From Clostridia bacterium (GTDB lineage: Bacteria; CBDUZB01; JAGLHV01): 64,000 nucleotides of DNA. A program made the position numbers and the translations under genes. Under the pieces are notes generated by a model that ran no database searches, had not been told where the DNA came from, and saw only the letters and a program-made list of their open reading frames with translations. The DNA is taken from the NCBI GenBank assembly GCA_030637025.1, contig DAOVVV010000007.1, positions 1 through 64,000 on the forward strand, in the 5' to 3' direction. How positions within the stretch are numbered: the stretch's first letter is position 1; every line of letters starts with the position of its first letter. Below are positions 26,142 to 53,762 of the stretch, in pieces.

Positions 26142-26172
26142 TTTGTTTATTAGATGATAGGGTGATATTTAA

Positions 26173-26959: not shown

Positions 26960-27035
26960 TAAGAAACAGAGGGATTTTGTTTGGAATTTGTGATTTGGGA
27001 GTTTGAGTTTGTTTTTTAAGGGGGGTGAAATAAAA

Positions 27036-27206: not shown

Positions 27207-27218
27207 TGGAGAAAAGAA

Positions 27219-28061: not shown

Positions 28062-28079
28062 TAAATATTCAAGGGATAA

Positions 28080-34363: not shown

Positions 34364-36853
34364 TTAATGGATATCAAGTATCTTTTTTATTTTTTGAGAC
34401 AATAATTCATAATCAAAAGGTTTGACAAGGTATTCAGAAGCACCGGAAGTATAACCGGTTAATTTATTTTTAATCTGGCCTAAAGCAGTGAGCATAATTA
34501 TGGGAATAAAATGAGTTTTGTCATCTTTCCATAATTCCTGGCAAACTTCATATCCATTCATTTTCGGCATAAGGACATCTAAGATGATAACATCGGGAAA
34601 TTCTTTTTTTGCTTTGGCTAATCCTTCTTCCCCGTTATAAGCGGTCACAACCTGGTAATTGTCATTTTCCAATCTGATTTGTAATGACCTTACTACCCCC
34701 GGCTCGTCATCAACTAAAAGAATTTTTTTTGGTTTTGATTTTTCTCCCTTATCTGTTGTGGCAGAAAAAGGTTGAATTTCAGAGGTAAAAATACCGGGCT
34801 TATATTTAGGCAGGGTAAAGATAAATTTAGTGCCTTTTCCTAATTGACTTTCTACCTGTATTTTACCGGAATGCAATTGGATAATATCTTTGGTTATCGG
34901 CAGTCCTAATCCTGCTCCCTGGAAAAAAGTATCGTTGTTTTGGTTAATTCGTTTAAATTTTTCAAAAATTTTATTAAAATTTTCAGGTGCTATTCCTATT
35001 CCGGTATCCTGAACGGTTGTTTCTATTAAATCATTTTTTTCCCGGATAGAAATAGTGATACTTTTATTAACCGGGGTGAATTTGACGGCATTTCCGATTA
35101 AATTGGTAAAGACCTGAGTAATTTTATCAGAATCTGCGTATATAGGAGGTAAAGTAAGGGGAAAATCGGTATTGAGGGTAATATTTTTTTTACTGGTTTC
35201 GGATTTAAAAGAGGTAACCACTTTTTCCACAAGAGGGGGAAGATCTAAAGTTATTTTATTCAATTGCATTCTTCCTGTTTCAATTCTGGATAAATCCAGG
35301 AGATTAGATATTATTCTTGCTAAGCGATGGATACTATCTTCAATAATGAGTAAATATTCTCTCTGTTCTTTATTAATTTTTCCGGATATTTCATCTAACA
35401 TAATAGAAGCAAAACCTTTCATATTAGTTAAGGGAGTACGTAATTCGTGAGAAATGATGGAGATAAATTCCATTTTCATTTGTTCTAAATTTTTTTCTTT
35501 AGTAATATCTCTGAGCAAAGTTACTATTCCTAATTTTTCTTCTTTATGATTTTTAACCTGGGAAAGAGTTACTTTTAGATGAGTATTGGCGGGTGGGGAT
35601 AACTTTATCTCTTTAGTAATAGGGGAAGAACTAATTATTTTAGAATATAATCCGGATAAGTATAAGTTTTTGAATTTATTCCATTGATGGGTTTTCTTTT
35701 CCTGTGAATCGGAATCAGAGGGTATTCCAATTAGTTTTTTAGCCATGGGATTAAGAAAAATTAATTTTCCTTCTTCGTTAGTCATAATTACTCCTTCGAT
35801 CATACTTTTTACCATTGACTCCATTTTGCTTTTTTCTTCAGCCATAAGCGATTCTATTTCTTTAGTTCGCTTTTCTACTTTTTTTTCAAGAGAAATGCTG
35901 TATTCTTTAATTTCTTTTTCTGCTTTTCGCAGATCCTTAACTAACGCTTTTATTGTACGCATATCTCTGGCGATTCCCACAATTGCTGTTATTTTGCCTG
36001 ATTCATCGGTTATTGTAGAAGCATTAAAGTTGACAGGTATTTCCTCGTTTTTTTTTGTTAAAAAAGTCAGGTCACAATCTCTGATCGCTCCTTTTCGGGA
36101 TAAATTGTTTAATAGCGATTCATCTAAAAATGTTTTATTACTAAAAATAATATTTGCCGGCTGTCCGATAAGAGCATCTTTTTCATATTTCAGCAAGTTT
36201 AAAGTTGCCGGATTGACTGTTTTTATTTTATTATCAGGGTCTACTACAATTAAGCAATCAAGCATACCCTCGATTATATTGGAAATGTAATCTTTGCTTT
36301 TATATAGTTCCCGGCTTTTATTTTTAAATTTAATTTCGTAGTTCTTTTCCAGGTCTACTACTTTTTTAAAAAGAGTAGCGATTACGAAAAATATGCTTAT
36401 TTTCAATAGCAACCAACCAAAATGTGTGGCCTGTAAACTTTTTATTTCTCCAAGATGAAAGCAAACCAGAATAGTGCTTATTGCTAAAGTGGCCAGTAGT
36501 AATGTTTTTTTTGTGCAAATTAAACTTATGGTAATTAAAGGGAAAATAAACATTATCCACAAATTTGATTTATATCCCCCGGTATAATAGATTAATAATG
36601 TAATAAGAAAAATATTGGAAAGGCCGATAAAGGTTTTACTTACTAATAATGCTTTGTTTCGAAGCAATGATTTGATACTTATGATATTAAAAAAAATAAT
36701 TGTTAAAATTACTGAAAACACCTGAGGAAATATAGAAAGTTCTATATCTCTTAAAATTAGAAGTAACGGCCAGATAAATCCCAATAGTAGCCCCATATAT
36801 TTATAAAGTACATTCAATAAAGAAAAATCATTTTTGAAATTATTCTGCTGCAT
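34364..36853 (-). CDS. Membrane hybrid sensor histidine kinase (TM-PAS-PAS-HisKA-HATPase-REC)
   Basis: Multi-TM N-terminus; SHELRTPL H-box, NLIGNAVKFT, DTGIGI, GAGLGL; C-terminal REC ILDVLMP. Confidence 0.93.
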   Translation of the reverse strand: MQQNNFKNDFSLLNVLYKYMGLLLGFIWPLLLILRDIELSIFPQVFSVILTIIFFNIISIKSLLRNKALLVSKTFIGLSNIFLITLLIYYTGGYKSNLWIMFIFPLITISLICTKKTLLLATLAISTILVCFHLGEIKSLQATHFGWLLLKISIFFVIATLFKKVVDLEKNYEIKFKNKSRELYKSKDYISNIIEGMLDCLIVVDPDNKIKTVNPATLNLLKYEKDALIGQPANIIFSNKTFLDESLLNNLSRKGAIRDCDLTFLTKKNEEIPVNFNASTITDESGKITAIVGIARDMRTIKALVKDLRKAEKEIKEYSISLEKKVEKRTKEIESLMAEEKSKMESMVKSMIEGVIMTNEEGKLIFLNPMAKKLIGIPSDSDSQEKKTHQWNKFKNLYLSGLYSKIISSSPITKEIKLSPPANTHLKVTLSQVKNHKEEKLGIVTLLRDITKEKNLEQMKMEFISIISHELRTPLTNMKGFASIMLDEISGKINKEQREYLLIIEDSIHRLARIISNLLDLSRIETGRMQLNKITLDLPPLVEKVVTSFKSETSKKNITLNTDFPLTLPPIYADSDKITQVFTNLIGNAVKFTPVNKSITISIREKNDLIETTVQDTGIGIAPENFNKIFEKFKRINQNNDTFFQGAGLGLPITKDIIQLHSGKIQVESQLGKGTKFIFTLPKYKPGIFTSEIQPFSATTDKGEKSKPKKILLVDDEPGVVRSLQIRLENDNYQVVTAYNGEEGLAKAKKEFPDVIILDVLMPKMNGYEVCQELWKDDKTHFIPIIMLTALGQIKNKLTGYTSGASEYLVKPFDYELLSQKIKKILDIH

Positions 36854-36932
36854 AAATTAATTCTCCTTGCTGAATTTATTTTTTTCCTGTGTACAATGAA
36901 AACAGCGAAAGCGTCCTTTAAATTCTGATTTT

Positions 36933-38381
36933 TCATAATTGACCCTTTTCTTTTTTTAATTTATTTAATTCTTTAAATAAATCTTGTTTTTTTATTGGTT
37001 TTATGATGAAATTTTTATTGCCCCAGTCAAAAACCAATGTTTTGGTTTTTGAAGAGGAAATGACAATAATAGGGATAGACATAGTTTTGGGATTATTTTT
37101 TAAATCTCTCAGTATTTTTCCCTGCTCGGATTCTGCAGTCATAATATCCAGTATAATAGCAAAAGGGTTGGTATGAACAGGTTGTTTCAATGCTTCCTCT
37201 TTAGTTAAACAACCGACAACCTGATATTCTGTTTCTTTGGTAAAATTGCAAATTCGCCTGATAACTGCCGGATTAATATCGATAACCAAAATATTTTTTT
37301 TAGTTTCTTTTTGCAAGGCTGTTGGTTGATAAGGGAGGGTAAGAATAAAGGAAAAATCGTTGTTGGAGATATTTTTTATTTCCAGAGTTCCTCCTATAGA
37401 TTCTGTTAAAGTTTTCGCAAGGTTTAAATTTATAGTTACTTCGTCATATTCGTGAGCAGAGAACTGGTGGGCTGTTTTAAAAGGAGTAAAAGTAAAATTT
37501 TTACGGAGGGGATTTATTAATAAAGGGATTATACCGATTTTTATTGTTTTTTTACAGGCAACGTTTAAAATAGAAATAATGAATTGTCCCGGGGAAGACA
37601 ATTTAATAGTATAATCTATTATGTTAGTTAGAATTTGTTTTATATGTGATTTATCACTAATAATAAAAGGTAAATTTGGGTCAATATGAATTTTAGCAGC
37701 GAGGTTTTTTTCTTTTAATAAAGGATTTGCTTCTATAATTATTTCTGCCAGGATATTTTTTATTTTAATTTTTTCCCAGTGAGGAACCATTTTATTAAGA
37801 GTAATATTGGATAAATCCAGAAGATTATTAATCATCTGTAATAACTTTTTAGAATTAATATTTATTTTATTTAAAATTTGGTGTTGTGGGGAGATTTGTT
37901 GACCATTCGGGTTATTTAATAAAAAAGTTGTTTGATCAACAATGGCATTAATCGATGTTTTTAAATTATAGTTTGTATCAGTAAATATAGAGGGGTGGAT
38001 TTGTTTAGCCGCTATCCTTTTTTTTATACACCGTTCAACCGTTGCATTAAGATGGGAAAGGTCAAAAGGTTTACTTATGTAATCGTAACTTCCTAAACGC
38101 ATGGCTTTTACTGCTGTTTCAATAGTTGCATATCCGGTAAGAATAATAGTATCAGTGTTTATGTTGTTTTTTTTAATATCTTTTAATACTTCCAAGCCGT
38201 TAATGCCGGGCATTTTTAAATCAAGTAAAACAAGGTCAAAAAAGTTACTGTGTAACATGGTTAAACCTTCTTTTCCGTTTTTAGCTGATTCTACATGATA
38301 ATATTTTTGCCGAAGAAGTTTGCTGCAAAGCTCCCTTATCTCAAATTCATCATCAATTACCAGAATATTCGCTTTATTCAT
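36933..38381 (-). CDS. REC-degenerate HisKA/HATPase-REC protein (probable pseudokinase)
   Basis: Intact N-terminal REC; H-box reads NYNLKTSINAI (no His); N-box NIIDYTIK; G-boxes missing; degenerate C-terminal REC. Confidence 0.8.
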   Translation of the reverse strand: MNKANILVIDDEFEIRELCSKLLRQKYYHVESAKNGKEGLTMLHSNFFDLVLLDLKMPGINGLEVLKDIKKNNINTDTIILTGYATIETAVKAMRLGSYDYISKPFDLSHLNATVERCIKKRIAAKQIHPSIFTDTNYNLKTSINAIVDQTTFLLNNPNGQQISPQHQILNKININSKKLLQMINNLLDLSNITLNKMVPHWEKIKIKNILAEIIIEANPLLKEKNLAAKIHIDPNLPFIISDKSHIKQILTNIIDYTIKLSSPGQFIISILNVACKKTIKIGIIPLLINPLRKNFTFTPFKTAHQFSAHEYDEVTINLNLAKTLTESIGGTLEIKNISNNDFSFILTLPYQPTALQKETKKNILVIDINPAVIRRICNFTKETEYQVVGCLTKEEALKQPVHTNPFAIILDIMTAESEQGKILRDLKNNPKTMSIPIIVISSSKTKTLVFDWGNKNFIIKPIKKQDLFKELNKLKKEKGQL

Positions 38382-38396
38382 AAGTCTCCCTTTTAC

Positions 38397-40301
38397 CTAA
38401 AGCGGTAAAATTATAACAAATTTAGACCCTTTTCCTGTTCCTTTACTTTCAGCCCAAATATTTCCGTTATGTTTTTTTAAGATTCCATAACTTACGGAAA
38501 GCCCCAACCCTGTATTATTCCCTACTTCTTTAGTAGAAAAGAAAGGATCGAATATTTGGGGTAAAGCTTCTTTTTCAATTCCCTGTCCCTGATCATGGAA
38601 AGTGACGGCAATATATTTTCCTTTATAGTTATCAGTTTTATTAGTAAGTAATTGTTCTTTTGAAGATGAGTAATCATAAATTCTGGTACTAATGGTTAAT
38701 TTTCCTCCCTTAGGCATTGCTTGCTGTGCATTGACAATTAAATTAAGAAATACTTGTTGTATTTGAGGGGCGCTAAGTTTTATTTTAGGTAAATTTGGAG
38801 CGTATTTTTTAATTATCTGAATATTTTCAATAGCTAATTGGCGTCCATATAAGGAGAAAGTCTTATCGATTATTTCATTAATATCAATTACTTGAAAATC
38901 AAACTCCTGTTGCCGGGAGAAGCCCAGTAAATTAGTAACAATACCTTTACATCTCTGGGCGGCCTCTTCTATTTTTTTTATTTCGGTATACCCATGATTG
39001 TTTTTGGATAATTGCATTAAGAGCAATTGGGCATTACCCAGAACACTGGTTAAAGGATTATTAATTTCATGGGCTACACCTCCGGCTAATTGTCCCAGAG
39101 TAGCCATTTTATCTGCCTGGATTAACCGGATTTGAAGTTGTTTTCTTTCGGTTATATTTTTGACGGTTACCATCATTTCCATAGATTCATTTTCTTTGTG
39201 TTTCATTGGGCAAATGTATAATTCAGCAGGAAACTTTTTGCCGTCTTTTTTTTTCATCATTACTTCCTGGGCGTAAGTTTTTTTTGGTATTTGAGGGTCT
39301 AAAATATTTTTTATTAAAGAAGATATATTGGTGTTATCAGTAAATAGTGTGGTTAATTTTTTACCCAGCATTGTTTGCACAGGATAATTAAATATTCTTT
39401 CTACCGCTTCATTACAGGAAGTAATAGTCATATCGGATTTTAAGGAGAAAATAGCATCCTGAATACTGGCAAATAGTTCCTCTAAATAATATTTTGATTT
39501 TTTGATTTCTGCTTCCATTTTTTCCCTTTGGGTAATATCACGCATAATGGCTCTTATTCCTGTGATTTTTTCATTTTGTTTTATTACCGAGGAATTGATT
39601 TCCACAATGATTTTTTCGTCGTTTTTATTGATTAATTTTATTTTAAATCCGGAAAGAGTGCCTTGTTCAATGGTTTTTTGTATAAAATCTGAAATATTTT
39701 CCAGGGTACAGGGAGAAAAAAATTGTTTAAAGTTCATTTTAAGTATTTTGTCTTTTGGATAGAGAAAAAACAAAGCGGCTTGTTTGTTAATAGTGACAAT
39801 TGCTCCCTGGGTATCTAAGGTGCAGATTAAATCGTTGGCATTTTCTACCAAATCTCTATATTTTTCTTCGGATTCTGCTAAACTTCTTTGCAGTACGTCC
39901 TGTATTTTTTTCGTTTGAAAAGCACTGATTGCTTTTTCTACTACTAAAGGTAATAAATTAAGATAATTAACACTTTTAGTGATATAATCGTAAGCGCCCA
40001 ATTTCATTGCATTTACTGCTATTTTTTCATTTCCTTCCCCTGTTACAAAAATAACAGGTAAATGATAATTTTTTCTTATCTTGTTTAGTATCTCCAATCC
40101 ATTTTCTTTCGGCAGATTATAATCTAAAAGCAGAATGTCAAAATTATTGTGACCAAGCATTTTCAAACATTCTGCACCGGAAGAAGCGGTTTTAACATGA
40201 TATTTAGAATTAATACTTAATAACTTGTCTTTAGCTAATTGGGCATGGTCAAAATTGTCATCTACTACTAAGATATTAATCTTTTTTTTATTAGAAATCA
40301 T
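38397..40301 (-). CDS. Cytoplasmic REC-PAS-PAS histidine kinase (NtrB-like)
   Basis: LLDYNLP REC; AHEINNPL H-box; NLIVNAQQAM, DQGQGI, FDPFFSTK, TGLGL. Confidence 0.93.
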   Translation of the reverse strand: MISNKKKINILVVDDNFDHAQLAKDKLLSINSKYHVKTASSGAECLKMLGHNNFDILLLDYNLPKENGLEILNKIRKNYHLPVIFVTGEGNEKIAVNAMKLGAYDYITKSVNYLNLLPLVVEKAISAFQTKKIQDVLQRSLAESEEKYRDLVENANDLICTLDTQGAIVTINKQAALFFLYPKDKILKMNFKQFFSPCTLENISDFIQKTIEQGTLSGFKIKLINKNDEKIIVEINSSVIKQNEKITGIRAIMRDITQREKMEAEIKKSKYYLEELFASIQDAIFSLKSDMTITSCNEAVERIFNYPVQTMLGKKLTTLFTDNTNISSLIKNILDPQIPKKTYAQEVMMKKKDGKKFPAELYICPMKHKENESMEMMVTVKNITERKQLQIRLIQADKMATLGQLAGGVAHEINNPLTSVLGNAQLLLMQLSKNNHGYTEIKKIEEAAQRCKGIVTNLLGFSRQQEFDFQVIDINEIIDKTFSLYGRQLAIENIQIIKKYAPNLPKIKLSAPQIQQVFLNLIVNAQQAMPKGGKLTISTRIYDYSSSKEQLLTNKTDNYKGKYIAVTFHDQGQGIEKEALPQIFDPFFSTKEVGNNTGLGLSVSYGILKKHNGNIWAESKGTGKGSKFVIILPL

Positions 40302-40423
40302 TTTGGTAAAAAACCTTTCTTTAAGTAGTTGGTTTTATACATACTTCATAAAACTTAAATAAAATTTAAATAAGATGGCAAAAAAAATAATTTCGCTCAT
40401 TTTAATGTCTCTTTCTACTCAAT

Positions 40424-40452
40424 ATTTTAACGATTTAAATGAGTTTTGTCAA
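40424..40452 (-). promoter_or_regulatory. Sigma70 promoter for the leftward signalling operon
   Basis: Minus strand TTGACA-17 bp-TAAAAT. Confidence 0.65.
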
Positions 40453-40535
40453 GGAAAATATAAAATTAAAGGGGGGGGGGATTTAGGTTTTAGTTGCCGG
40501 TTTATTACCGGAAGAAAAAAAGATAAATTTTTTAC

Positions 40536-40564
40536 TTGCTTTTAAAAATGTATTTTTATAAAAT
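40536..40564 (+). promoter_or_regulatory. Sigma70 promoter for the rightward HPt/PilB operon
   Basis: TTGCTT-17 bp-TAAAAT, divergent from the 40424-40452 promoter. Confidence 0.5.
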
Positions 40565-40754
40565 AACTAAAGTAGTATTGTATTTATTTTAAATAATAAT
40601 TTATTTTGTATCCTAAAAGTTAAGTATAAATGCAATTATTTTTACTATTAGTTTATTTAAACGGATAAAAGGTGTGTGTATTAATAATAAAGATTAGTTT
40701 CATTACTAATTAAATTCAGTTAAAGATCACCTAATTAGAAAGGAAAAAATTAAA

Positions 40755-41459
40755 ATGTGTTCTACTTCGAAATCTGTAGTTAAGATTATTTTTTGTACTT
40801 CCAATCCGGATGAAAAGATGTTGCTCTGGAGTTTTTTACCGGATGGAGTGGTGTTGGATACAGTGAAAAGAGAGGAAGAATTACTTGAAAAGTTTAAGGA
40901 AACGGGCTGTAATATAATTTTATTGGATACTCAAATGGGCGTGCAGGATGGGTTTGCCGTTATTAAAAAAATAAGGGAGTATGAATCTGCTTCCGATTGG
41001 AAAGCAGTGCCTATAGTGGGAATAGTTCCCAATAAGGAAAATGCTTTATCCTCAAAATTCAGTGATCATATATTTCGTCCTTTTCAGCAGCAGGAGGTAT
41101 TAAAAGTTATTAACAAATATGTTTCTTTGCCTCCTTTATCGGCAATAGTTATTACTCTTGACCTGGAAATTAAAGATTTTGTTCCTGAATTTCTGGAAAA
41201 CAGAAAAAAAGACAGTCTCTCGATTGGTGTGAATTTAAAAGAAAATAATTTTGTAAAAATTAAGGAATTAGGGCATAAGATGGTTGGTTCGGGAAAACTT
41301 TATGGCTTTGAACGAATTAGTAAAATAGGATATTTATTAGAAAAAGCAGCTAAAGAAGAACGAATAGAACCGATAAAAAAATTATCTCAGGAATTAATAA
41401 TTTATCTTAATCAAGTGAAAAGCAGGTGGTTATATGCAGTCAAAGATTGTGGTCATTGA
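40755..41459 (+). CDS. Atypical REC plus HPt phosphotransfer protein
   Basis: IILLDTQM REC-like core; C-terminal LGHKMVGSGKLYGF HPt His motif. Confidence 0.85.
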   Translation: MCSTSKSVVKIIFCTSNPDEKMLLWSFLPDGVVLDTVKREEELLEKFKETGCNIILLDTQMGVQDGFAVIKKIREYESASDWKAVPIVGIVPNKENALSSKFSDHIFRPFQQQEVLKVINKYVSLPPLSAIVITLDLEIKDFVPEFLENRKKDSLSIGVNLKENNFVKIKELGHKMVGSGKLYGFERISKIGYLLEKAAKEERIEPIKKLSQELIIYLNQVKSRWLYAVKDCGH

Positions 41460-43986
41460 TGATGACCAGGAAATTTTAAAGATATTTAAACGGTATCTGG
41501 AGAATGAAAATTATATAGTTTATACCGTTGATAATAGTTTTAAAGCACTGGAAACGGTAGAAAAGGTAAAACCAGGTTTGATTTTACTGGATGTTCAGAT
41601 GCCGGAAATGAATGGATATGAAGTTTGTTCAAAAATACGAAATAACGAAAGTTTGTCCGGGGTTCCTGTAATATTTATAAGTGCTCTGGATGAACAACAG
41701 GATAAGACAAAAGCATTTTCTCATGGTGCTGTTGATTATATAGTAAAGCCGCCCAGCAAAAAAGAAATAGTAGATAAAATTAAAAAGCATTTAAAAGGGA
41801 TTATCGATGAGCAGGGGAAAGAAGAAGATGCTCATATAAAAAAAATAAGTTTCCCCGGGAAATTTAAAGATTTTAAAAAATTTTTAGAAAATAAATTAAG
41901 TTTAAATGCAGAAAAAAAAGAAATATTATTAGCAACAAAAGCGAACGCAATAAATTCACTGGGTGGAGCTTTAAGTCTTTCCAGTGCACAATTAGCACAG
42001 TATATTGCCGAATTTTTAAAATTGAAATATATTCCTTATCTGGATCCGGAACTTTTACAGCTGGATATCCTTCCCAATTCTTTTTGCCGAAAGTATCATG
42101 TATTAACTATAAATGATGAAAATCAAAACAAAGAAGCAGAAGATAAAGTTTTTGCTTTGAGCAATCCTTTTGATTGGGAACTGATGGAATTTTTAAGTAA
42201 GATGAACGGGAATAACCGGGTGGTGATTACTGAATCGGAAAACATTGATTCCTTTTTTAAAGAAAAAGGAGAAGACAAAACGACTATTGATATTATTTCC
42301 CAGGGTGCCTCTCAGCAGGAAATAGAAAATCGTCCGGTTAAATATATAAGCGACCATATTATTTATAAAGCAATAATTCAAAGAGCAAGTGATATACATA
42401 TAGAACCTAAAGAATCGGAAACAAGTATTCGCTTTCGTGTCGATGGGGATATGCAGCCTGCTTTTTTTCTGAAAGATAAGACCGCTTTACGCTTGATTGC
42501 CCGATTTAAAGTACTTGCTGACTTAGATATTGCCGAAAGGCGAAAACCGCAAGATGGTTCTTTTGCTATAGCCATGGGCAATAGAAAGTTTAAATTAAGA
42601 GTGGCTACTACCAATACAGCTTTCGGAGAGAGTGTTGTTTTACGTTTGTTAGAGCCTAAAGGAAAACCAAAATCATTGGAATTGTTGGGAATGACTGATG
42701 AACAAGAGAAGACTATTCGCGAATTTTCCCGGCAGACCAGCGGTCTGATTTTGCTGGTTGGGCCCACGGGTTCGGGGAAAACTACTACTATTTATAGTCT
42801 TCTAAGCCAGATAGACTGCAAAACCAGGAGTTTAATTTCAGTAGAGGACCCTATTGAATATACTATCCCGGATGCTAATCAACAACAGGTAAATGAAAAA
42901 ATCGGAGTTACCTTTCATATGCTTTTAAGATCGGCAATGCGTCAGGATCCGGATATACTCTTTATCGGTGAAATGAGAGACCGGTTTTCTGCTTCGGTAG
43001 CAACAGAAGCAGCCAGTACCGGCCATTTAGCTATCAGTACTATGCATTCAGCCAATGCTACCAGTGCAATTTTTCGTATGGAAACATTGGGTGTAGTCCG
43101 TTCGGTTATGGCTGATTCAATTTTGGGGATAGTATCACAGAAACTGCTTAAGGTTCTTTGTCCTTATTGCCGGGAAGAGTTACCTATTACCAAGGAAGAA
43201 ATCCGCTTGTTATCAAAATATACAACTAATTTTCCCGGTAGTGTTGCTCATCCGGGAGGATGTCCACAGTGTAATTATACCGGTTATTATGGAAGGGAAG
43301 CAGTTTATGAAATTTTAAAATTTGATTCGGAAATATCGAAAATGGTGCGTGATAATATTCCGGTGGGAGAGATAAGGCGGTTTATTAAACAGCAAGGCGA
43401 TTATTTAATCGGTGACCATGCTTTGGAAAAAGTAAAGAATTTTAAATTTTCAGTAAAACAAATTTGTGGTACGGTGTTAATAGAGGAAGCAGAGCTTGTT
43501 TCACCTGCTAAAAAAACAACCCGGATTATTCAGGACAGAAAATTAGAGGGTGAACAAATAGAAAGTAAAATGGTGCAAGATGAAAAATTACCGGATAATA
43601 AACATATATTACTGGTGGAAGACGATAGGGATATTCGCCGGGTGGTGGCCCGGTTATTGGAAAAAGATGGGTATTCGGTTACTGTTGCCGAGGACGGTAT
43701 AGCTGCTCTGCTGCATATGGGTAAATCAACTTTTGAATTGATTCTTTCCGATGTAGAGATGCCTAATTTAGACGGATTTAAATTATTGGAGATGAAAAAC
43801 CAAAAGGGAATTAAAACCCCTGTAATATTTTTAACTTCAAGGGCGAATGTACAGGATGAAGCACTGGGATTTAAAATGGGTGCTGTTGATTATATTAGAA
43901 AGCCGTTTAATAAAGAGACTTTATTGTTAAGAATTAATAGTATTTTAAAGATATTGAAAAACGGGGGGAATGTAAAAAATGGATAA
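41434..43986 (+). CDS. PilB/GspE-family assembly ATPase with N- and C-terminal receiver domains
   Basis: REC (LLDVQMP); RASDIHIEP, GPTGSGKTTT, EDPIEY, RQDPDILFIGEMRD, TGHL..STMH, CPYC/CPQC; REC (LSDVEMP). Confidence 0.93.
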   Translation: MQSKIVVIDDDQEILKIFKRYLENENYIVYTVDNSFKALETVEKVKPGLILLDVQMPEMNGYEVCSKIRNNESLSGVPVIFISALDEQQDKTKAFSHGAVDYIVKPPSKKEIVDKIKKHLKGIIDEQGKEEDAHIKKISFPGKFKDFKKFLENKLSLNAEKKEILLATKANAINSLGGALSLSSAQLAQYIAEFLKLKYIPYLDPELLQLDILPNSFCRKYHVLTINDENQNKEAEDKVFALSNPFDWELMEFLSKMNGNNRVVITESENIDSFFKEKGEDKTTIDIISQGASQQEIENRPVKYISDHIIYKAIIQRASDIHIEPKESETSIRFRVDGDMQPAFFLKDKTALRLIARFKVLADLDIAERRKPQDGSFAIAMGNRKFKLRVATTNTAFGESVVLRLLEPKGKPKSLELLGMTDEQEKTIREFSRQTSGLILLVGPTGSGKTTTIYSLLSQIDCKTRSLISVEDPIEYTIPDANQQQVNEKIGVTFHMLLRSAMRQDPDILFIGEMRDRFSASVATEAASTGHLAISTMHSANATSAIFRMETLGVVRSVMADSILGIVSQKLLKVLCPYCREELPITKEEIRLLSKYTTNFPGSVAHPGGCPQCNYTGYYGREAVYEILKFDSEISKMVRDNIPVGEIRRFIKQQGDYLIGDHALEKVKNFKFSVKQICGTVLIEEAELVSPAKKTTRIIQDRKLEGEQIESKMVQDEKLPDNKHILLVEDDRDIRRVVARLLEKDGYSVTVAEDGIAALLHMGKSTFELILSDVEMPNLDGFKLLEMKNQKGIKTPVIFLTSRANVQDEALGFKMGAVDYIRKPFNKETLLLRINSILKILKNGGNVKNG

Positions 43987-44527
43987 TGAAATGAGTTCAA
44001 CTTTAAAATGTGCTAAATGTGAGCAGGAATTTAATAAAAAAGAATTAACTATAATTAATGAAAATCCCTATTGTCACCAATGTACGATGGAATTTGCTAA
44101 TGAATTTATAAAGATAAAAAGTGAGCAGTTAAGTAAAAAAACAAAAAAAACAGCGGTAATAAAAAATAAAAATTGGAAAAATGTACTCATTTGTTTGTTT
44201 TTTATTTGTATGGGATTGAATGCAATTTTAATACCTCAAATGATTAATTCTTTAAAAGGGAATAAAGTAATTCGTAAAGGAGTAATTAAAACCGATAAAC
44301 AAACGGATAATTGTATTAAAAATCTTTGGCAAATATCCAGAATGCTGCAAGAAGGCAAATTGCCTCCGGGTAATTTAGTCTGTCCGGTTAGTAAAAAAGT
44401 TTATTTGGTAAAAGAGGATGGAGAAAATATAATAGTTTTTTGTCCTACCCCTTCCCGGCATGGGCAAGGTAAATTTAAACAAATTAAAGTAAGCAGGTCT
44501 TCTCCTATTCCGGAGGTGATAGAATAA
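43979..44527 (+). CDS. Zn-finger, TM and pilin-like periplasmic domain protein
   Basis: N-terminal CAKC...CHQC; TM helix; CIKNL...CPVS...FCPTPSRHG resembles the heads of the neighbouring pilins. Confidence 0.6.
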   Translation: MDNEMSSTLKCAKCEQEFNKKELTIINENPYCHQCTMEFANEFIKIKSEQLSKKTKKTAVIKNKNWKNVLICLFFICMGLNAILIPQMINSLKGNKVIRKGVIKTDKQTDNCIKNLWQISRMLQEGKLPPGNLVCPVSKKVYLVKEDGENIIVFCPTPSRHGQGKFKQIKVSRSSPIPEVIE

Positions 44528-44528
44528 G

Positions 44529-45410
44529 ATGTCCGCTAAGAATAAGGGGTTTACTTTTATTGAGATTTTAGTCATCGTAATAATAATATCATTTTTAATT
44601 TCTGTTGGAATGATTAAGTATGTTGAGATGGTTCGGAAAGCGAGGGTTACCCAATGCCGGGTAAACCGGACGACGATAGAAGATGCAGAACAGCGTTATT
44701 ATTATGCTAATAATGAATCCTGTTTAAATATTTCTAAACTGGTAGAGGATGGTTATTTGAATAAAATGCCTGTGTGTGCTGCCGGGGGGCAATATGTCTG
44801 GATCAGTACTTTTACAAATTCTTCCGTTTATCCTCTGGTGGGATGTTCGGTTCATTATTGGTTTGATTCAGAATCGGAAATGGTAACTGAACTATTATTT
44901 TCGCATGATTTTAATAATATGGATTCTCTTACTTCCTTGAGAGGTGACTGGTATATTGCAGATAGTACACTTAGGCCTACGGTGAGAGGGGGAGAGCACC
45001 GCCTGGTTTTTGGAGAGTTGGATTGGACGGACTATACAATAGAAGTAGAGGCAATTTTGCATGAAGGAAGGGGCTATGGGATTTATTATCGCAGTGACGG
45101 AGAAGAAAGAATAAGTGGTTATTGTTTTCAATATAATCCCGGAGACAGGGACTCTTTTTTGGTAAGAAGGGTATTTAACGGCCGGGAGGAAAGCCCTTTT
45201 CAGCGGGTAAGTATGCCGGAAGGATTTTCTGTTTACGGTCAGTCTCATACTATTTCTATTACCGTTGATGGAAACAACCATACAATCAGTGTTGATGGCC
45301 GGCAAATAATGGATTTTAATGATAATGCCTTTTCTTCCGGGATGGCCGGGTTTAGCTCCTGGGGACATTCGGAAGTAAGTTTTGACCAGGTTAATGTTTA
45401 TGAGAACTGA
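44529..45410 (+). CDS. Type IV pilin fused to a ConA-like/DUF1080 beta-sandwich
   Basis: KG|FTFIE N-methylation motif; WTDYTIEVEA, GYGIYYR, SSGMAGF. Confidence 0.85.
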   Translation: MSAKNKGFTFIEILVIVIIISFLISVGMIKYVEMVRKARVTQCRVNRTTIEDAEQRYYYANNESCLNISKLVEDGYLNKMPVCAAGGQYVWISTFTNSSVYPLVGCSVHYWFDSESEMVTELLFSHDFNNMDSLTSLRGDWYIADSTLRPTVRGGEHRLVFGELDWTDYTIEVEAILHEGRGYGIYYRSDGEERISGYCFQYNPGDRDSFLVRRVFNGREESPFQRVSMPEGFSVYGQSHTISITVDGNNHTISVDGRQIMDFNDNAFSSGMAGFSSWGHSEVSFDQVNVYEN

Positions 45411-45609
45411 CAGAAACGACAGTTATGAGTGACGAGTTATAAGTTTAAAGATAGCAACTGGCTCATGATTCCTATCAAAAGAGGTTCCCTCTTTTTCTCC
45501 CCTCGGGGGTTAGAGGGATTTGGGAGTGTAGAACAAAGGCAAAATATGTTTTTCTCTAAACGCATAATTTTACCCTGCGGGCACGCAAAAACAGGATAGT
45601 TATTTAAAT

Positions 45610-45634
45610 GTAGGGGGTGACCCTTGGTCGCCCG
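45610..45634 (+). repeat. GTAG-family REP-like palindrome
   Basis: GTAG-G-GGGTGACC-CTT-GGTCGCCC. Confidence 0.55.
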
Positions 45635-45658
45635 AAAGACTCTTTATTTTTCAGTTTT

Positions 45659-45689
45659 CCCCTTTTTGAAAAAGGGGGTTAGGGGATTT
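45659..45689. repeat. Dispersed palindromic repeat CCCCYTTTGAAAAAGGGGGTTRGGGG(G)ATTT, copy 1
   Basis: Near-identical copies at 48483 and 62498; degenerate copy near 45486. Confidence 0.8.
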
Positions 45690-45734
45690 ATTTAAGACAG
45701 TAAGATAAAAGAAGTAAATTAAGGGAAGGATAAA

Positions 45735-48395
45735 ATGAAAATAGCTAACAAAATAAGCATTTCTTTTTTTATAATTACATTAATAATAATAACCGGTGTT
45801 AGTCTTATTTTTTACAAAATGGTGGAAACTAATTTAAGAAAAAGAATATTTGCTCATTTGGTTACTACCGCACAAGCAAAAGCGCCGCATATTGAAACAT
45901 TTTTAGAATTAAAAGGAGAAGCAATTAAACAATTAGCACAAAGTGAAATATTAAAAGAGTTATTATTAACGAACAAAAAAGATAAGGATTATAGATTCCT
46001 ATTTAAGAAGGTCTTGTCCCGGTTGAAAAATACCGTTAAAGAGACGAAGTATATTTTTGATATTTCACTGATAAATAGAAAAGGAATAAGTATTGTTTCC
46101 ACTATGCAGAAAGAAATAGGACAGGATAAAAGCAACTGTTTATGTTTTTTAAACGGGAAAAAGGATATATTTATTAAAGATGCCTGTATTTGCAAAAATA
46201 AAAAAGTGCCGGCTTTTACTTTGTCCTCTCCGATAACAGATGAAGAAAATAATTTTTTGGGAGTGGTACTAGTCAAAGTTTTAATGGAGGGAATAAACCG
46301 GATAACTACCTCCCACATTGGTTTGGGAAAAAGGGGAGAAATATATTTGGTAAATAAGGATGGTTATATGATTACCCCTTCCCGTTTCAAGGGGGATACT
46401 TTTCTTAAACAGAGAGTGGAAGCTAAAGGGGTAGGAGATGCTTTAAAAGATGTTTATGACCTTCAAAGTGAAAAGCACCGGCATATCTTTGAGAATGTTG
46501 ATGGTGATAATCTTGATCAATTCGCTAAAGGACACAAAAAGGTAACTTTTAGTTATAAAAATTACCAGGGTAAATGGGTTCTGGGGGTGCATGAGCATAT
46601 TCATCAGTTACCCTGGGGATTGATAGTAGAAATGGATAGAAAAGAGGCTTTAGCCCCATTAAAAAAAATAAAATATTTATTTATCGGGATAATGGGAATG
46701 GTCCCTTTAATCGTTTGGGTAGGGGGGAGTGTAGTGGGGGGAATTATTGCTAACCCGATTAAAAAATTGCGCCGGGGGGTAGAAAAAATAGGAAAGGGAG
46801 AATTAAATTATAAAGTAGGGACAAAAGCAGAAGACGAAATCGGTCAGCTTTCCCGGGCGTTTGACCAGATGGCTCAGGATTTAAAAGAGTCAACTATTTC
46901 GATAGACTTTCTTAATTATGAAATTGCCCGGCGAAAGCAAATAGAGGAAAAACTACAATTATTTTCCCATGCTGTGGAAAGTGCTGCGGAGGGTATAGTG
47001 CTGGGTAATCTTATGGGTGAGATTACTTATATGAATGAGTCTTTTATTAAAATGTTTGGTTATTCAAGAGAAGAGATAACGGGAAGAAAAATTACCTTTC
47101 TTTATTCTCAAGATGAACAGCCAAAGGTGCAGGAGACATTAAATATAAATATGCAGAATAGTTGGAAAGGGGAGATGACGGTCAGGAGAAAAGATGGTAC
47201 CCCTTTTCCCATGGAAATACATTCATCAGTGGTAAGGAATACCTCAGGAAGGATTATTGCTTGCATGGTCACTTATCTTGATATTACCGAGCGTAGACAA
47301 ATAGAGGAAAAACTACAATTATTTTCCCATGCTGTGGAAAGTGCGATTGTAGGCATGGCTATAGCCAATCTTGAAGGCAGGTTTATTTATGTAAATAAAG
47401 CGTTTATTAAGATGTTTGGCTATACAAAAGAAGAGTTAATAGGTAGAGAAATTGCTTTTATTTATTCTAATGATAAGAATGAAAGGGCAAAGTTGCAAGA
47501 AGCGATAGAGAAGACGAAGACAATAGATGGATTTAAAGGGGAGTTGTTGTGCAGGAGAAAAGATGGTTTATGTTTTCCTCTAGAGGTGAATGCCTCGGCA
47601 GTGAAAGATGCTTCAGGACAAGCTATTGCCCTTGTAGCCGGGCATGTAGATATTACTCAACACAAGCAAGCCCAGGAAAAGATGAAGGAAGCAGTCAGGA
47701 TAAAATCGGATTTTTTATCCAGGGTTTCCCATGAATTAAGAACCCCGCTTACCGCTATAAAAGAAGGCATCGGCATAGTGCTGGATCGTTCTGCCGGAGA
47801 AATAAACGCTGACCAGGAGGATTTTTTAGCTACGGCCAAGAGAAATGTAGACCGTTTGCACCGCTTAATCAATGATGTTCTGGATTTTTCTAAATTGGAA
47901 GCCAGAAAAGCTGAATTCAAGATGAAAGAGAATGACCTTAATTCTACGATAAAAGAGATAGTAAAGATGCAGCAGCCGGTACTTCAGGAGAAAGGACTTT
48001 ATCTTAAACTGGATTTGAGTAATAATATGGAAAAAATATTATTTGATGAGGATAAAATAAGTCAGGTACTTACCAATCTGATGAGTAATGCCATTAAATA
48101 CACCAGTAAAGGCGGAATAACCATAAACAGCAGAAAAAATGGAGAGGTTATCCGGGTGGGGATCAAAGATACGGGTCAAGGGATAAAAACAGATGACCTG
48201 AATAAATTATTTCAACAATTTCAGCAGGTGGGAAAGGAATTCAGAAAGCCGGGTAGTACGGGACTGGGTTTAGCCATATCTAAAGAAATAATAGGTGGAC
48301 ATAAGGGGAAAATTTGGGCGGAATCCCGGGATAATGTAGGTTCTGAATTTATTTTTACTTTGCCCATCATTAAAGAGAGAAGAAAAAAAGTTTAA
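45735..48395 (+). CDS. Sensor histidine kinase (Cache-HAMP-2xPAS-HisKA-HATPase)
   Basis: Two TM helices around a Cache domain (GEIYLVNKDG), DEIGQLSRAF HAMP, SHELRTPL, DTGQGI, GSTGLGL. Confidence 0.93.
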   Translation: MKIANKISISFFIITLIIITGVSLIFYKMVETNLRKRIFAHLVTTAQAKAPHIETFLELKGEAIKQLAQSEILKELLLTNKKDKDYRFLFKKVLSRLKNTVKETKYIFDISLINRKGISIVSTMQKEIGQDKSNCLCFLNGKKDIFIKDACICKNKKVPAFTLSSPITDEENNFLGVVLVKVLMEGINRITTSHIGLGKRGEIYLVNKDGYMITPSRFKGDTFLKQRVEAKGVGDALKDVYDLQSEKHRHIFENVDGDNLDQFAKGHKKVTFSYKNYQGKWVLGVHEHIHQLPWGLIVEMDRKEALAPLKKIKYLFIGIMGMVPLIVWVGGSVVGGIIANPIKKLRRGVEKIGKGELNYKVGTKAEDEIGQLSRAFDQMAQDLKESTISIDFLNYEIARRKQIEEKLQLFSHAVESAAEGIVLGNLMGEITYMNESFIKMFGYSREEITGRKITFLYSQDEQPKVQETLNINMQNSWKGEMTVRRKDGTPFPMEIHSSVVRNTSGRIIACMVTYLDITERRQIEEKLQLFSHAVESAIVGMAIANLEGRFIYVNKAFIKMFGYTKEELIGREIAFIYSNDKNERAKLQEAIEKTKTIDGFKGELLCRRKDGLCFPLEVNASAVKDASGQAIALVAGHVDITQHKQAQEKMKEAVRIKSDFLSRVSHELRTPLTAIKEGIGIVLDRSAGEINADQEDFLATAKRNVDRLHRLINDVLDFSKLEARKAEFKMKENDLNSTIKEIVKMQQPVLQEKGLYLKLDLSNNMEKILFDEDKISQVLTNLMSNAIKYTSKGGITINSRKNGEVIRVGIKDTGQGIKTDDLNKLFQQFQQVGKEFRKPGSTGLGLAISKEIIGGHKGKIWAESRDNVGSEFIFTLPIIKERRKKV

Positions 48396-48482
48396 AAACA
48401 AAAAACAGTCCATAGTCCACAGACAGAAACGACGGTTATTAATTAAAGAATGGCGAATGGCAAAAGAGTAAAGATAATTTTT

Positions 48483-48513
48483 CCCCCTTTGAAAAAGGGG
48501 GTTAGGGGGATTT
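48483..48513. repeat. Dispersed palindromic repeat, copy 2
   Basis: ccccctttgaaaaagggggttagggggattt. Confidence 0.8.
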
Positions 48514-48622
48514 TTTTTTGGGGGGGGTAGAACAAAGGCAAAACATATTTTACCTTCATTTTTTTGTTTTGAATTTACTTGTCCGCCAGTCTCTAAGTCG
48601 GGAAGCTTGAAGAGGATGACAG

Positions 48623-51613: not shown

Positions 51614-51683
51614 ATTTTAAAGACAGTTGAATTTGTTTAGATTGGTTTTATTTGTTACATTGTTTTAAAAAGGAGAAATTTTT

Positions 51684-52883
51684 ATGACTACTAAGTTTGT
51701 AACAGGGATAGCTGCTGGGGGGGATAGTTTTGCAGTAGGAAAAGAAGCTGCTTGGAAAGCAAGTAATAAAATGCCGCAAGAGAAAAAAAAGGATTTGATA
51801 ATTATATTTTGTTCTTCAGTGTATAATTATACAGAAGTGATAAAGGGAATAAAAGAAGTAATTCCCAATGTTCCTCTTATTGGCTGTTCCAGTGCCGGGG
51901 AATTTACCGAAGAAGGGGTTGGTAAAAAAAGTGTATGCTGTGCTTTGATTTCTTCTGATACCCATAAATTTTTTCTGGGGTGGGGAAAAGGACTCAGAGA
52001 GAATGAAATAGAGACAATAGAGCAGGCTACTAAGGATTTTCCGCAAACGGTAAATGATTATCCTCATTTATCTTGTATTGAATTTATCGATGGATTAGCG
52101 GGAAAAGGGGAAGAAGCCACTTCGGCTGTATGTAATATTTTAAGTAATCTGGGAGGGTTAAGCGGAGGAGCGGCTGCGGATGATTTAAAATTTAAAGAAA
52201 CTAATATATTTGTAAATAATCAGATAAATTCCGATGCTGTGGCTTTATGTTTAATGGCTTCAAAAGTTCCGGTAGCAATAGGGGTAAAACATGGACATAA
52301 GCCACTTAGTCCGGCTTTAAATGTAACTAAATCCGAAGGTTGTATTCTTTATGAACTAAACGGAAGGCCTGCCTTTGAAGTTTGGAAAAAACACACTAAA
52401 CAGAGAGCTAAAGAGAAATTTAGTATAGATGTGGATAAATTGTCTGAACCTTCGGAAATAGGAAGTTTCCTTATTAAATATGAAGCAGGATTGCTTACCG
52501 GAATGGAATATAAAGTACGGGTTCCCCTTTCTATTAATGCAGATGGGTCTTTGAACTTTGTTTGTAATGTTCCTGAAGGGTCAGTATTAAAAATTATGGA
52601 AAGTCCAAAAGATGCTCAGATTAATTCGGCAAAAGAGGCAGCACAAAATGCAGTTGATTCTTTAAGAGGACATAAAATTGCCGGGGTAATTATTTTTGAT
52701 TGTGTTTGCCGTGCCCTTATTTTAGAAGATAAATTTTCTCAGGCGATTGAATCTATCATGGAAGTTATTGGAAAAGATATTCCCATTATTGGATTTGAAA
52801 CATACGGAGAAATAGGTATGGAAGCAGGACAATTAAGTGGATTTCATAATACGACTACCAGTATTTTGCTGATACCGGCATAA
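51684..52883 (+). CDS. FIST N/C domain protein (NosP-like sensor family)
   Basis: LIGCSSAGEF, GGAAAD, ELNGRPA, DCVCR, GFETYGEI, FHNTT. Confidence 0.9.
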   Translation: MTTKFVTGIAAGGDSFAVGKEAAWKASNKMPQEKKKDLIIIFCSSVYNYTEVIKGIKEVIPNVPLIGCSSAGEFTEEGVGKKSVCCALISSDTHKFFLGWGKGLRENEIETIEQATKDFPQTVNDYPHLSCIEFIDGLAGKGEEATSAVCNILSNLGGLSGGAAADDLKFKETNIFVNNQINSDAVALCLMASKVPVAIGVKHGHKPLSPALNVTKSEGCILYELNGRPAFEVWKKHTKQRAKEKFSIDVDKLSEPSEIGSFLIKYEAGLLTGMEYKVRVPLSINADGSLNFVCNVPEGSVLKIMESPKDAQINSAKEAAQNAVDSLRGHKIAGVIIFDCVCRALILEDKFSQAIESIMEVIGKDIPIIGFETYGEIGMEAGQLSGFHNTTTSILLIPA

Positions 52884-52975
52884 TAATGTGTTAATATAAG
52901 GAAAATAGTTATTTTATAAAATGACCGGAGAATAAATAAAAATAAATTAGTCGGCAAAAAAAAAGGAGGAGATAA

Positions 52976-53344
52976 ATGGATGAAGCTAAAAGGATATTAG
53001 TGATAGAAGACGAGATGGATGTTTTAAAAATGACTGTGTTCAGGTTAAAGAAGGCAGGTTATGATGTTTTAACTGCTGATGACGGAAAAAAAGGTTTAGA
53101 AACTGCTGAACAGGAAAGGCCTGATTTTATTTTTCTTGATTTAAACCTGCCGGTGATGGACGGATATGAGGTGTGCCGTGAATTAAAAAAGGATGAAGAA
53201 TTAAAGAAAATACCCGTAGTTATACTGAGTGCCAGTTCGGACGGGATAAAGGAAAAATCAATAGAAATCGGAGCGGATGATTATATAATTAAGCCTTATG
53301 AACCACAGGAATTATTGAACAAAATAGAAAAATTTTTGGGGTAA
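52976..53344 (+). CDS. Single-domain response regulator
   Basis: IEDE, FLDLNLP, LSA, KP. Confidence 0.93.
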   Translation: MDEAKRILVIEDEMDVLKMTVFRLKKAGYDVLTADDGKKGLETAEQERPDFIFLDLNLPVMDGYEVCRELKKDEELKKIPVVILSASSDGIKEKSIEIGADDYIIKPYEPQELLNKIEKFLG

Positions 53345-53393
53345 AAACTGAGATAAAAGAAGTAAGAAATATATTATTTTAGAGAGGTATAGT

Positions 53394-53762
53394 ATGTTAG
53401 CAAAAAAGAAGGGTTTTACTTTAATAGAGATTTTATTGGTAGTAGCGGTGAGCGGGATATTGACTACTGCGGCTGTTCCTAAATTTTTTAATGTTCGTAG
53501 GAAAGCACAGGAAAATGTTTGTTTGGCTAATCGCCATCTTATTGACCGGGTCGATACTTTGTATTTTGTTCAGGAGGGGAAACATTCAGCAAGCGTTCAG
53601 GAATTGGTGGATGCCAAGTATTTAGGTGATTTGCCCGAATGCCCTTGCGGAGGAGTATATCTCTGGGTCCCTGCTTCAGAGGATAATGCACAATATAATG
53701 TGGTTATTTGTTCTATGCATGGAACAAATATATCTGGGGAGAAAAAAGTTGCGGCTGAATAA
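53394..53762 (+). CDS. Type IV pilin (ComGC/PilJ-like small head)
   Basis: KG|FTLIE; CLANR...CPCGGVY...CSMHG. Confidence 0.88.
   Translation: MLAKKKGFTLIEILLVVAVSGILTTAAVPKFFNVRRKAQENVCLANRHLIDRVDTLYFVQEGKHSASVQELVDAKYLGDLPECPCGGVYLWVPASEDNAQYNVVICSMHGTNISGEKKVAAE

Follow-up and report, generated by a model that had tools for sequence, protein, structure and literature searches.

A PilB/GspE-class ATPase with a receiver domain at each end, predicted to be the output of a phosphorelay, in a Clostridia bacterium

The stretch of DNA analysed here, referred to as the window, comprises 64,000 nucleotides (positions 1 to 64,000 of the forward strand of contig DAOVVV010000007.1, assembly GCA_030637025.1, labelled Clostridia bacterium). 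The host genome is a metagenome-assembled genome of 2.36 Mb in 77 contigs that is 97.8% complete. At positions 41434 to 43986 the window encodes an ATPase of 850 residues (P0001) in which a secretion- and pilus-type ATPase core (T2SSE) is placed between two receiver (REC) domains. An original prediction, made from the sequence alone, had described this gene as a pilus assembly ATPase bracketed by two intact receivers and had proposed that the motor is a direct output of a His-Asp phosphorelay. The ATPase gene, its domains and its immediate neighbors are as follows, with the basis of each assignment in brackets.

41434..43986, plus strand: REC-MshEN-T2SSE-REC ATPase, 850 residues (single open reading frame (ORF), Pfam, 120 clusters with the same architecture)
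41446..41784, plus strand: REC1, residues 5-117, with D9, D10, D53 (phospho-Asp), S83 and K105 (Pfam, conservation, model confidence (pLDDT) 82-87)
41842..42258, plus strand: complete MshEN-fold domain without the motif for binding cyclic di-GMP (c-di-GMP), residues 137-275 (Pfam, profile match, model and Foldseek)
42325..43458, plus strand: T2SSE core, consisting of N2E and the C-terminal ATPase domain, residues 298-675 (Pfam E 6e-107, PDB sequence matches, invariant residues)
42760-42783, plus strand: Walker A of the T2SSE core, residues 443-450
43159-43272, plus strand: tetra-Cys site of the T2SSE core, C576/C579/C610/C613
43603..43959, plus strand: REC2, residues 724-842, with E729, D730, D773 (phospho-Asp), T801 and K823 (second Pfam stretch, conservation, model)
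40755..41459, plus strand: degenerate receiver (residues 30-119) plus histidine phosphotransfer (Hpt) domain (residues 129-225) (Pfam, NCBIfam, blastp, invariant His, hidden Markov model (HMM))
43979..44527, plus strand: Zn-ribbon (C11, C14, C32, C35), transmembrane (TM) helix and Cys-rich periplasmic domain, 182 residues (translation, profile search)
44529..45410, plus strand: pilin-like protein with a C-terminal DUF1080 (3-keto-disaccharide hydrolase) domain, 293 residues (Pfam N_methyl and 3keto-disac_hyd)

The ATPase belongs to a large family. A search of 5.8 billion clusters returned 7990 matches among 8000 scored candidates, and the best 120 clusters, including the window's own, were examined. 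All of these carry both T2SSE and Response_reg matches, at 93-100% query coverage and 47-77% identity. Their database names are generic, for example 'Flp pilus assembly complex ATPase component TadA', 'ATPase, T2SS/T4P/T4SS family' and 'PilB-like protein/DNA-binding response...'. Conservation was read from an alignment of 120 sequences (P0001 and P0003-P0121). A second, species-level scan used one genome per GTDB species and found 596 relatives among 600 matched stretches, of which the best 80 loci were retained. Of these 80, 20 contain a complete REC-MshEN-T2SSE-REC ORF, with some of them checked by Pfam. These 20 loci together with the window make up the 21 complete loci referred to below. 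The REC-T2SSE-REC arrangement is thus common to the best 120 clusters and to 20 species genomes.

Pfam places two Response_reg matches in the 850-residue ORF (the best at 5-117 and the second at ~724-840), with MshEN at 203-275 and T2SSE at 298-675 between them. The start codon is credible because the N-terminus, MQSKIVVIDDD, aligns with homologues from residue 1. The claim of a complete PilB/GspE core was borne out, as all ATPase signatures are present and are near-invariant in the 120 sequences. They consist of Walker A (GPTGSGKT, 443-450), the Asp box (E471-D472), Walker B (D505..E513) and the His box (H531/H538). K449 and E513 are kept in 120/120 members, H531 in 117/120 and H538 in 119/120. 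The Zn-site cysteines C576, C579, C610 and C613, a trait of extension-type and not of PilT-type enzymes, are each found in 120/120. The receiver positions are likewise kept. In REC1, D53, K105 and S/T83 are present in all 120 sequences, D9 in 118 and D10 in 117; in REC2, D730 is present in all 120, and D773, T/S801 and K823 in 119 each. In other words, the phospho-acceptor quintet is complete in both receivers of the window ATPase and is kept in 117-120 of the 120 family members, in line with the original description of an acidic pocket, phospho-Asp, Ser/Thr and Lys at each end.

A full-length AlphaFold model of the ATPase has a mean pLDDT of 78 and a predicted TM-score (pTM) of 0.52. Its layout, by residues, is as follows.

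1-121: REC1
122-136: disordered linker
144-195: four helices
199-272: alpha/beta unit
276-297: linker
300-686: ATPase domains
687-721: disordered linker
724-842: REC2

According to this model, both receivers would be tethered flexibly to the ATPase by the disordered linkers 122-136 and 687-721. A PDB sequence search with the ATPase returned EpsE (1p9r) at the top, and also PilF (6ejf) and PilB (5tsg); among the 20 PDB sequence matches there was no structure with a receiver fused to such an ATPase. The NCBIfam whole-protein models scored below their curated cut-offs: 379.7 vs 630.25 for GspE (TIGR02533), 349.5 vs 675.65 for PilB (TIGR02538) and 353.5 vs 850 for TfpB. Filing the ATPase as GspE or PilB proper was rejected because the scores are under both cut-offs.

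What happened to the N-terminal domain through which related motors sense c-di-GMP? The original prediction held that the T2SSE N-domain is only partly retained, that the RLG motifs are absent and that a receiver sits in their place. The absence of the motif was upheld and the rest was not. The tandem 24-residue motif RLGxx(L/V/I)(L/V/I)xxG(L/V/I)(L/V/I)xxxxLxxxLxxQ, as given in PMC10333796 and PMC5013675, was sought with a strict and a loose regular expression, and neither matched in any of the 120 family members; the host's canonical PilB, on contig C74, does give a loose match. Residues 137-296 were modelled separately (AlphaFold, 21 locus sequences) with a pLDDT of 86 and a pTM of 0.79. 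In Foldseek searches of the PDB this model gave matches over 139-148 columns with a target-normalised TM-score of 0.57-0.66. The best matches were MshE with c-di-GMP (5HTL, at the top), the GSPII-B domain of PilF (8PKZ, 8PDK and others), the N-domain of Xanthomonas PilB bound to PilZ (7LKO) and XpsE-N (2D28). In addition, the N-terminal region of the ATPase gave a profile match to residues 67-168 of Geobacter PilB. Because the Foldseek matches span the whole MshEN domain, the model indicates that the whole fold is retained, including the four-helix MshEN_N bundle (144-195) and MshEN_C (T2SSE_N1). As modelled, REC1 is added upstream of MshEN via the linker 122-136 and is not substituted for it. 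The idea that a receiver replaces MshEN was therefore rejected, since the domain model matches a complete MshEN fold.

The phosphorelay context comes from the genes around the ATPase. The overlap with an upstream Hpt gene that had been reported is real, as the upstream gene overlaps the ATPase start by 26 nt (41434-41459), but its product is a degenerate receiver plus Hpt and not a plain Hpt protein. The receiver of this product scores 37.3 bits in Pfam. It has lost the acidic pocket and the Thr and has Arg for Lys; the Asp is kept. NCBIfam matches the gene to the REC-Hpt end of LetS, and by blastp its Hpt half resembles the Hpt proteins of other loci (E 1e-10 to 1e-23). The histidine of the GHxMxGSG motif is present in the window Hpt and is invariant in 16/16 aligned Hpt sequences. 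An HMM of Hpt sequences detected an Hpt, as a separate gene or as a domain, beside the ATPase in 19 of the 21 complete loci, with no match in L012 or L021. For the 16 sequences that went into the HMM this detection is circular; the Hpts of L003, L005, L018, L019 and L030 are new detections. Among 25 upstream proteins, Pfam Hpt is over the cut-off in 11 of 13 Hpt candidates (not in L001:6343-7017 or L002:1-960), and also in L002:1017-1823. In other loci the Hpt is usually preceded by a hybrid kinase of 668-1696 residues that has two or three receivers at its C-terminus. In Fermentibacterota, hybrid kinase and Hpt form one polypeptide, whose gene overlaps that of the ATPase. The window has its sensor kinases in genes of their own, three on the minus strand and two of the dCache type. 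The kinase genes, assigned by Pfam, are as follows.

34364-36853, minus strand: PAS hybrid kinase with a receiver
36933-38381, minus strand: REC-HisKA-like-REC protein
38397-40301, minus strand: REC-PAS-PAS kinase
45735-48395, plus strand: dCache-HAMP-PAS-HisKA-HATPase sensor kinase
48623-51613, plus strand: dCache-HAMP-PAS-HisKA-HATPase sensor kinase

The divergently transcribed kinases (34364-40301) are candidate phosphate sources for the Hpt, and the two dCache kinases (45735-51613) are candidate phosphodonors. The block 34364-52883, dCache kinases included, is syntenic with locus L001, whose ATPase is 77% identical; the minus-strand kinases are conserved there at 66-78% identity. The 482-residue product of 36933-38381 begins and ends with a receiver; between the two there is only a weak HisKA match, and Pfam shows no HATPase_c. 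This protein may serve the relay as a phosphotransfer or pseudo-kinase link. Behind the dCache kinases come genes for a FIST sensor protein, which is also syntenic in L001, for a single-domain receiver (52976-53344) and for a second small pilin (53394-53762), and the segment 51684-53762 may be part of the same signalling and pilin island. A promoter and terminator scan of 40200-54000 gave counts at the shuffle expectation (44 vs 48.3; 9 vs 9.3), which are uninformative on operon limits.

Going by their labels, the 20 other carriers of the complete architecture fall into at least eight phyla, namely Thermodesulfobacteriota, Myxococcota or 'Deltaproteobacteria', Omnitrophota, Chloroflexota, Elusimicrobiota, Actinomycetota, Gemmatimonadota and Fermentibacterota, and also include unclassified bacteria. 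A quick tree, with SH-aLRT (a Shimodaira-Hasegawa-like approximate likelihood ratio test) as the only support measure, was built from 87 rows. They were 83 cores from the loci and the window with at least 300 aligned residues, shorter cores being dropped, together with the host's own PilB and three own PilT sequences. All 27 cores that bear a receiver are grouped in a single long-branched clade (SH-aLRT 99). The host's canonical PilB lies outside it and groups with Bdellovibrionota PilB. Six rows of the clade have one receiver. In four of them (L004, L011, L013 and the second ATPase of L020) the ORF is truncated where the contig ends; in the other two, L027 and L030, Pfam recognises no receiver in the N-terminal region. 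A core-REC protein in L058 is placed outside the clade and looks like an independent fusion. The branching inside the clade does not track phyla. Within the host genus the ATPase occurs in one of three other genomes (G008, at 77% identity) and was not found at E<=1e-120 in the congeners G006 (97% complete) and G007 (89% complete). Because the branching does not follow phyla and the presence in the genus is patchy, the distribution fits an accessory, horizontally mobile module.

Related receiver-bearing genes occur close to the two-receiver ATPase in some loci. L010:14351-16138 (Coriobacteriia) encodes a 595-residue REC-REC-MshEN protein without a Pfam T2SSE match, and L020:1-2183 (minus strand) and L021:6675-7964 are second REC-MshEN-T2SSE genes. 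The search for relatives found three same-genus genomes only, with all others labelled 'same domain', and the host seems to sit in a sparsely sampled deep lineage.

Downstream, the gene for the Zn-ribbon-TM protein overlaps the ATPase stop by 8 nt, and the gene for the DUF1080 pilin starts 1 nt after it. No Pfam family is over its cut-off in the Zn-ribbon-TM protein, the best being LIM at 20.8 vs 22.9 bits. A word-indexed search found 3 close relatives only; an exhaustive profile search, run against 1.84 billion representatives, raised this to 298 at E<=1e-3, of which 190 reach E<=1e-10. Across 60 aligned members the four ribbon cysteines never vary, and neither do C112 and C135. The DUF1080 pilin has a prepilin signal (KG/FTFIE), an N_methyl match of 21.7 bits against a cut-off of 21.2 and an N-terminus of the GspG/ComGC type in NCBIfam. 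With this signal, and with a prepilin peptidase (Peptidase_A24, contig C74) encoded in the genome, the product of 44529-45410 is predicted to be a pilin. Homologues of the DUF1080 pilin stand beside the ATPase in other loci.

The Zn-ribbon-TM protein was found by HMM in 9 of the 21 loci. A pilin-like gene lies within 3 kb of the ATPase in 10 of the 21, nine by signal pattern and L003 by blastp. Eight of the nine Zn-ribbon-TM loci also have a pilin-like gene, and in the ninth (L006:13844-14656, Chloroflexota) the Zn-ribbon and TM part is fused directly to DUF1080. Other fusions point in the same direction. An Hpt-like N-terminus is fused to the Zn-ribbon-TM protein in P0131, P0132, P0141, P0148 and P0151, with Pfam Hpt over the cut-off in P0131, P0141 and P0148 and below it in P0132 and P0151. 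L002:1017-1823 is a further fusion of Hpt, over the cut-off, to the Zn-ribbon-TM protein, and P0161 joins a T2SSE C-terminal end, a receiver and the Zn-ribbon-TM protein in one chain. By their sequences, these fusions tie the Zn-ribbon-TM protein to other parts of the module.

The ATPase operon has no platform, secretin or alignment genes. No homologue of PilC, GspF, TadB or TadC was found within ~10 kb in the 21 loci, by blastp with the host's own PilC, TadB and TadC and by Pfam on 51 and 25 neighbors, and Pfam detected no secretin or GspC/L/M genes in the operon. Parts of pilus machines are encoded elsewhere in the genome. Host contig C74 encodes PilB, PilT, PilC and the genome's only prepilin peptidase (PilD), and the host also has two Tad systems and two further PilT-like genes. 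T2SSF, the platform family, is present on other contigs in 5/5 other carrier genomes searched. The canonical PilB-PilT-PilC-PilD cluster lies at C74:69447-74481, and its PilB keeps an MshEN-like KLGNLLVEVGII motif. The cell may thus have two extension ATPases at work in parallel, one of the c-di-GMP type and one of the phosphorelay type.

These findings converge on a model, to which a probability of about 0.6 is assigned as a whole, shared pilus machine included, in which the ATPase ends a multistep phosphorelay as its last response regulator, with a PilB/GspE-class hexameric motor as the output domain. The original inference of a phosphorelay output gains support from the comparison of loci: the Hpt and kinase context (Hpt in 19/21 loci, hybrid kinases), the kept quintets and the lost c-di-GMP motif all speak for it. 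The phosphotransfer, its effect on the motor, the machine served and the cargo, and with them the function of the module, are predicted from sequence as follows. The surrounding sensor kinases would pass phosphate to a hybrid-kinase receiver and from there to the adjacent Hpt protein, which in turn would phosphorylate D53 and/or D773 of the two flexibly tethered receivers. That the adjacent Hpt phosphorylates the receivers is the firmest of these steps and is quite likely. Phosphorylation would then gate ring assembly, ATPase activity or motor docking, by analogy with NtrC-type ring ATPases and with phosphorylated PixG acting in trans on PilB1. Since the locus itself encodes no platform protein, the motor most likely joins the type IV pilus machine that the cell already has (PilC, PilD and PilT of contig C74), where it would be an alternative extension ATPase gated by a signal. 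The co-encoded pilin-like protein, with its lectin-like DUF1080 head, would be the cargo, and the Zn-ribbon membrane protein would be a dedicated adaptor; such an adaptor and a lectin-headed pilin accompany the ATPase in about half of the loci. Why are there two receivers? They may integrate two inputs, for example the Hpt and an orthodox kinase, or one of them may be a sink, as in the PixG/PixH pair.

Several observations weigh against this model. The window Hpt scores 17.7 bits in Pfam, under the 24.6 cut-off, and the receiver attached to it is degenerate. The NCBIfam whole-protein models make the ATPase neither a GspE nor a PilB. The Zn-ribbon protein (9/21) and the pilin-like gene (10/21) are not universal partners, and no PilC/GspF-type gene lies within 10 kb of the ATPase in any of the 21 loci. 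Lastly, T2SSF was found in 13 of 14 control genomes; because it is nearly universal, its presence elsewhere in carrier genomes says little.

The absence of a platform gene from all 21 loci also lends itself to a different explanation, namely that the module is an autonomous minimal machine. The Hpt, the two-receiver ATPase, the Zn-ribbon protein and the DUF1080 pilin would then form a platform-less miniature type IV filament device. In it the phosphorelay would switch the motor directly, and the Zn-ribbon-anchored bitopic protein, possibly a pilin-like anchor, would replace PilC and couple the ring to the DUF1080 pilin. The output would be the regulated display or retraction of a lectin-like adhesin. 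The tight packing of the genes, the pilin-like gene in eight of the nine Zn-ribbon-TM loci and the fusion in the ninth are as such a device would have them. The anchor idea comes from two comparisons. In ESM Atlas the Zn-ribbon-TM protein leads to T2SSG clusters at 0.78-0.83 (below 0.9 and hence leads only), one of which has Zn_Ribbon_1 in 27% of its members. An hhalign comparison of the Zn-ribbon-TM family with 11 neighboring pilins gave a weak match (probability 8%, E 0.0043, 60 columns) in which the TM helix, Cys and CPxxG segments coincide in register with those of the pilins. However, these low scores are the sole basis of that idea, and the Zn-ribbon-TM protein is missing from 12 of the 21 loci. 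T2SSF is encoded in all six carrier genomes searched, and to our knowledge all characterised PilB/GspE motors require a PilC/GspF platform. A self-sufficient device is accordingly considered unlikely.

It is no more probable that the ATPase powers type II-like secretion or some other task unrelated to pili, or that it is a signalling hub or phosphate sink whose ATP turnover reports its state. GspE does score slightly over PilB in NCBIfam (380 vs 350 bits) and EpsE leads the PDB matches; two receivers on one protein would fit a source-and-sink design like that of PixG/PixH, and kinases crowd the locus, together with a FIST protein and one more receiver. Nevertheless, the strong constraint on every ATPase catalytic residue argues for a working motor, the operon has no secretin or GspC/L/M genes, and pilin-like genes are the only recurrent structural neighbors. 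Least credible of all is that the fusion arose in assembly or gene calling, or that the receivers are decayed pseudo-receivers. The genome is a metagenome assembly of many contigs, and the REC1-MshEN junction is left uncovered by the contigs, which are short, of X5 and X6, runs from other studies. DNA runs labelled cold seep metagenome do contain the stretch, and no RNA run was listed for it; four of the DNA runs, all from one study, may be its source, and one run from a second study holds near-identical pieces. One 12,213-nt Logan contig spans the whole stretch, from a run that may be the source of the DNA and is thus not independent, and a contig from another study spans the core-REC2 junction (X6 record 29, 43417-43656). 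However, 120 clusters, drawn from many sources, and 20 other species genomes show the same full-length architecture, and the quintets are kept in nearly all members. This recurrence and residue conservation effectively refute an assembly artefact and make decay of the receivers very improbable. A low-depth 'skips 112' joint in X1 (42408-42521, 1 contig, side 29) probably stems from a conserved stretch in another organism and was disregarded.

Setting these alternatives aside, how does the preferred model, a motor at the end of a phosphorelay, compare with known systems? GspE/EpsE of V. cholerae (1p9r/4ksr), PilF of T. thermophilus (6ejf/6f8l) and PilB of Geobacter (5tsg/6olj) are the extension ATPases of type II secretion and type IVa pili. 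The window ATPase shares with them the N2E and C-terminal core, the Walker A/B motifs, the Asp and His boxes, the tetra-Cys Zn site and an MshEN-fold N-domain. Unlike them, it has a receiver at each end, no c-di-GMP motif and a place in a separate long-branch clade, and its operon is without platform, secretin or alignment genes. A receiver that controls both the assembly and the activity of a hexameric ATPase ring is found in the REC-AAA+ regulators of the NtrC/DctD type. These differ in that their AAA+ sigma-54 activator fold is unrelated to the RecA-like secretion ATPase, their output is DNA-bound and they have one receiver.

In MshE and PilF, and in Xanthomonas PilB with PilZ and FimX, regulation goes through the N-terminal MshEN-fold domain, a fold that the window ATPase shares. 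The window family differs from MshE and PilF in that the RLGxx(L/V/I)(L/V/I)xxG... motif is absent throughout, and phosphorylation is predicted to be the regulator instead. Control by CheY-like receivers is known from PixG/PixH-PilB1 of Synechocystis and from PilG/PilH of the Pil-Chp system of P. aeruginosa, in which receiver phosphorylation controls the extension motor in trans. In the window ATPase the receivers are covalent with the motor, and the predicted feed is an Hpt phosphorelay and not a CheA-type kinase. In Synechocystis, only phosphorylated PixG binds PilB1, and PixH is described as a counter-player or sink (PMC11181946). More generally, reviews and primary papers describe the regulation of PilB/MshE by c-di-GMP, by PilZ/FimX and by receiver proteins in trans (PMC10333796, PMC5013675, PMC11181946).

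The fusion of a receiver to such a motor has been catalogued before. Supplementary Table 4 of Wang et al. 2016 (PMC5013675) lists REC - MshEN - T2SSE, with Gmet_3473 of Geobacter metallireducens as the example and beta-, gamma- and delta-proteobacteria as the range. The order is the same as in the window ATPase, with an N-terminal receiver before MshEN and T2SSE. The table entry, a catalogue line without an experiment, shows no second, C-terminal receiver, and REC2 is thus additional in the window ATPase. A search of the full-text literature, subscription journals not covered, found no study of a receiver-fused PilB/GspE in either the one- or the two-receiver form, and a literature search for 'Gmet_3473' found no paper. 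In short, the N-terminal fusion was catalogued in 2016, no study of the two-receiver form was found, and the family is large, conserved and uncharacterised.

If the model is correct, the motor would be the last acceptor of a four-step phosphorelay and would link an environmental sensor directly, at the post-translational level, to filament assembly. A kinase, the Hpt and the ATPase would then make a simple in vitro system for receiver control of a RecA-type secretion ring. The mechanism would also be ecologically common, as the family is found in at least eight phyla, mostly in uncultured anaerobes. The Zn-ribbon membrane protein, with 298 representative clusters and no Pfam family, and the DUF1080-headed pilins would be uncharacterised parts of type IV filament biology.

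Other parts of the window carry features that lie apart from the ATPase module. A partial pilus cluster of the Tad/Flp type at 24725-29054 includes TadE/TadG-like genes (25230-26141 and 26173-26622), RcpC/CpaB (27219-28061) and a secretin (28080-29054). This cluster has no ATPase in the window; CpaF-like genes are on contigs C5 and C75. The segment 20216-23917 shows signs of type IX secretion, with a PorV-like/TPR protein (20216-21679) and Por_Secre_tail and CHU_C matches below the Pfam cut-offs at 22361-23917, which hint at an FCB-type envelope. Finally, at 54153-58509 a 210-residue ORF with a short DNA_pol_A match (37.4 bits against a cut-off of 34.3) lies directly upstream of, and overlaps, a gene for a 1243-residue PKD/MAM-domain protein, which is an odd pairing.

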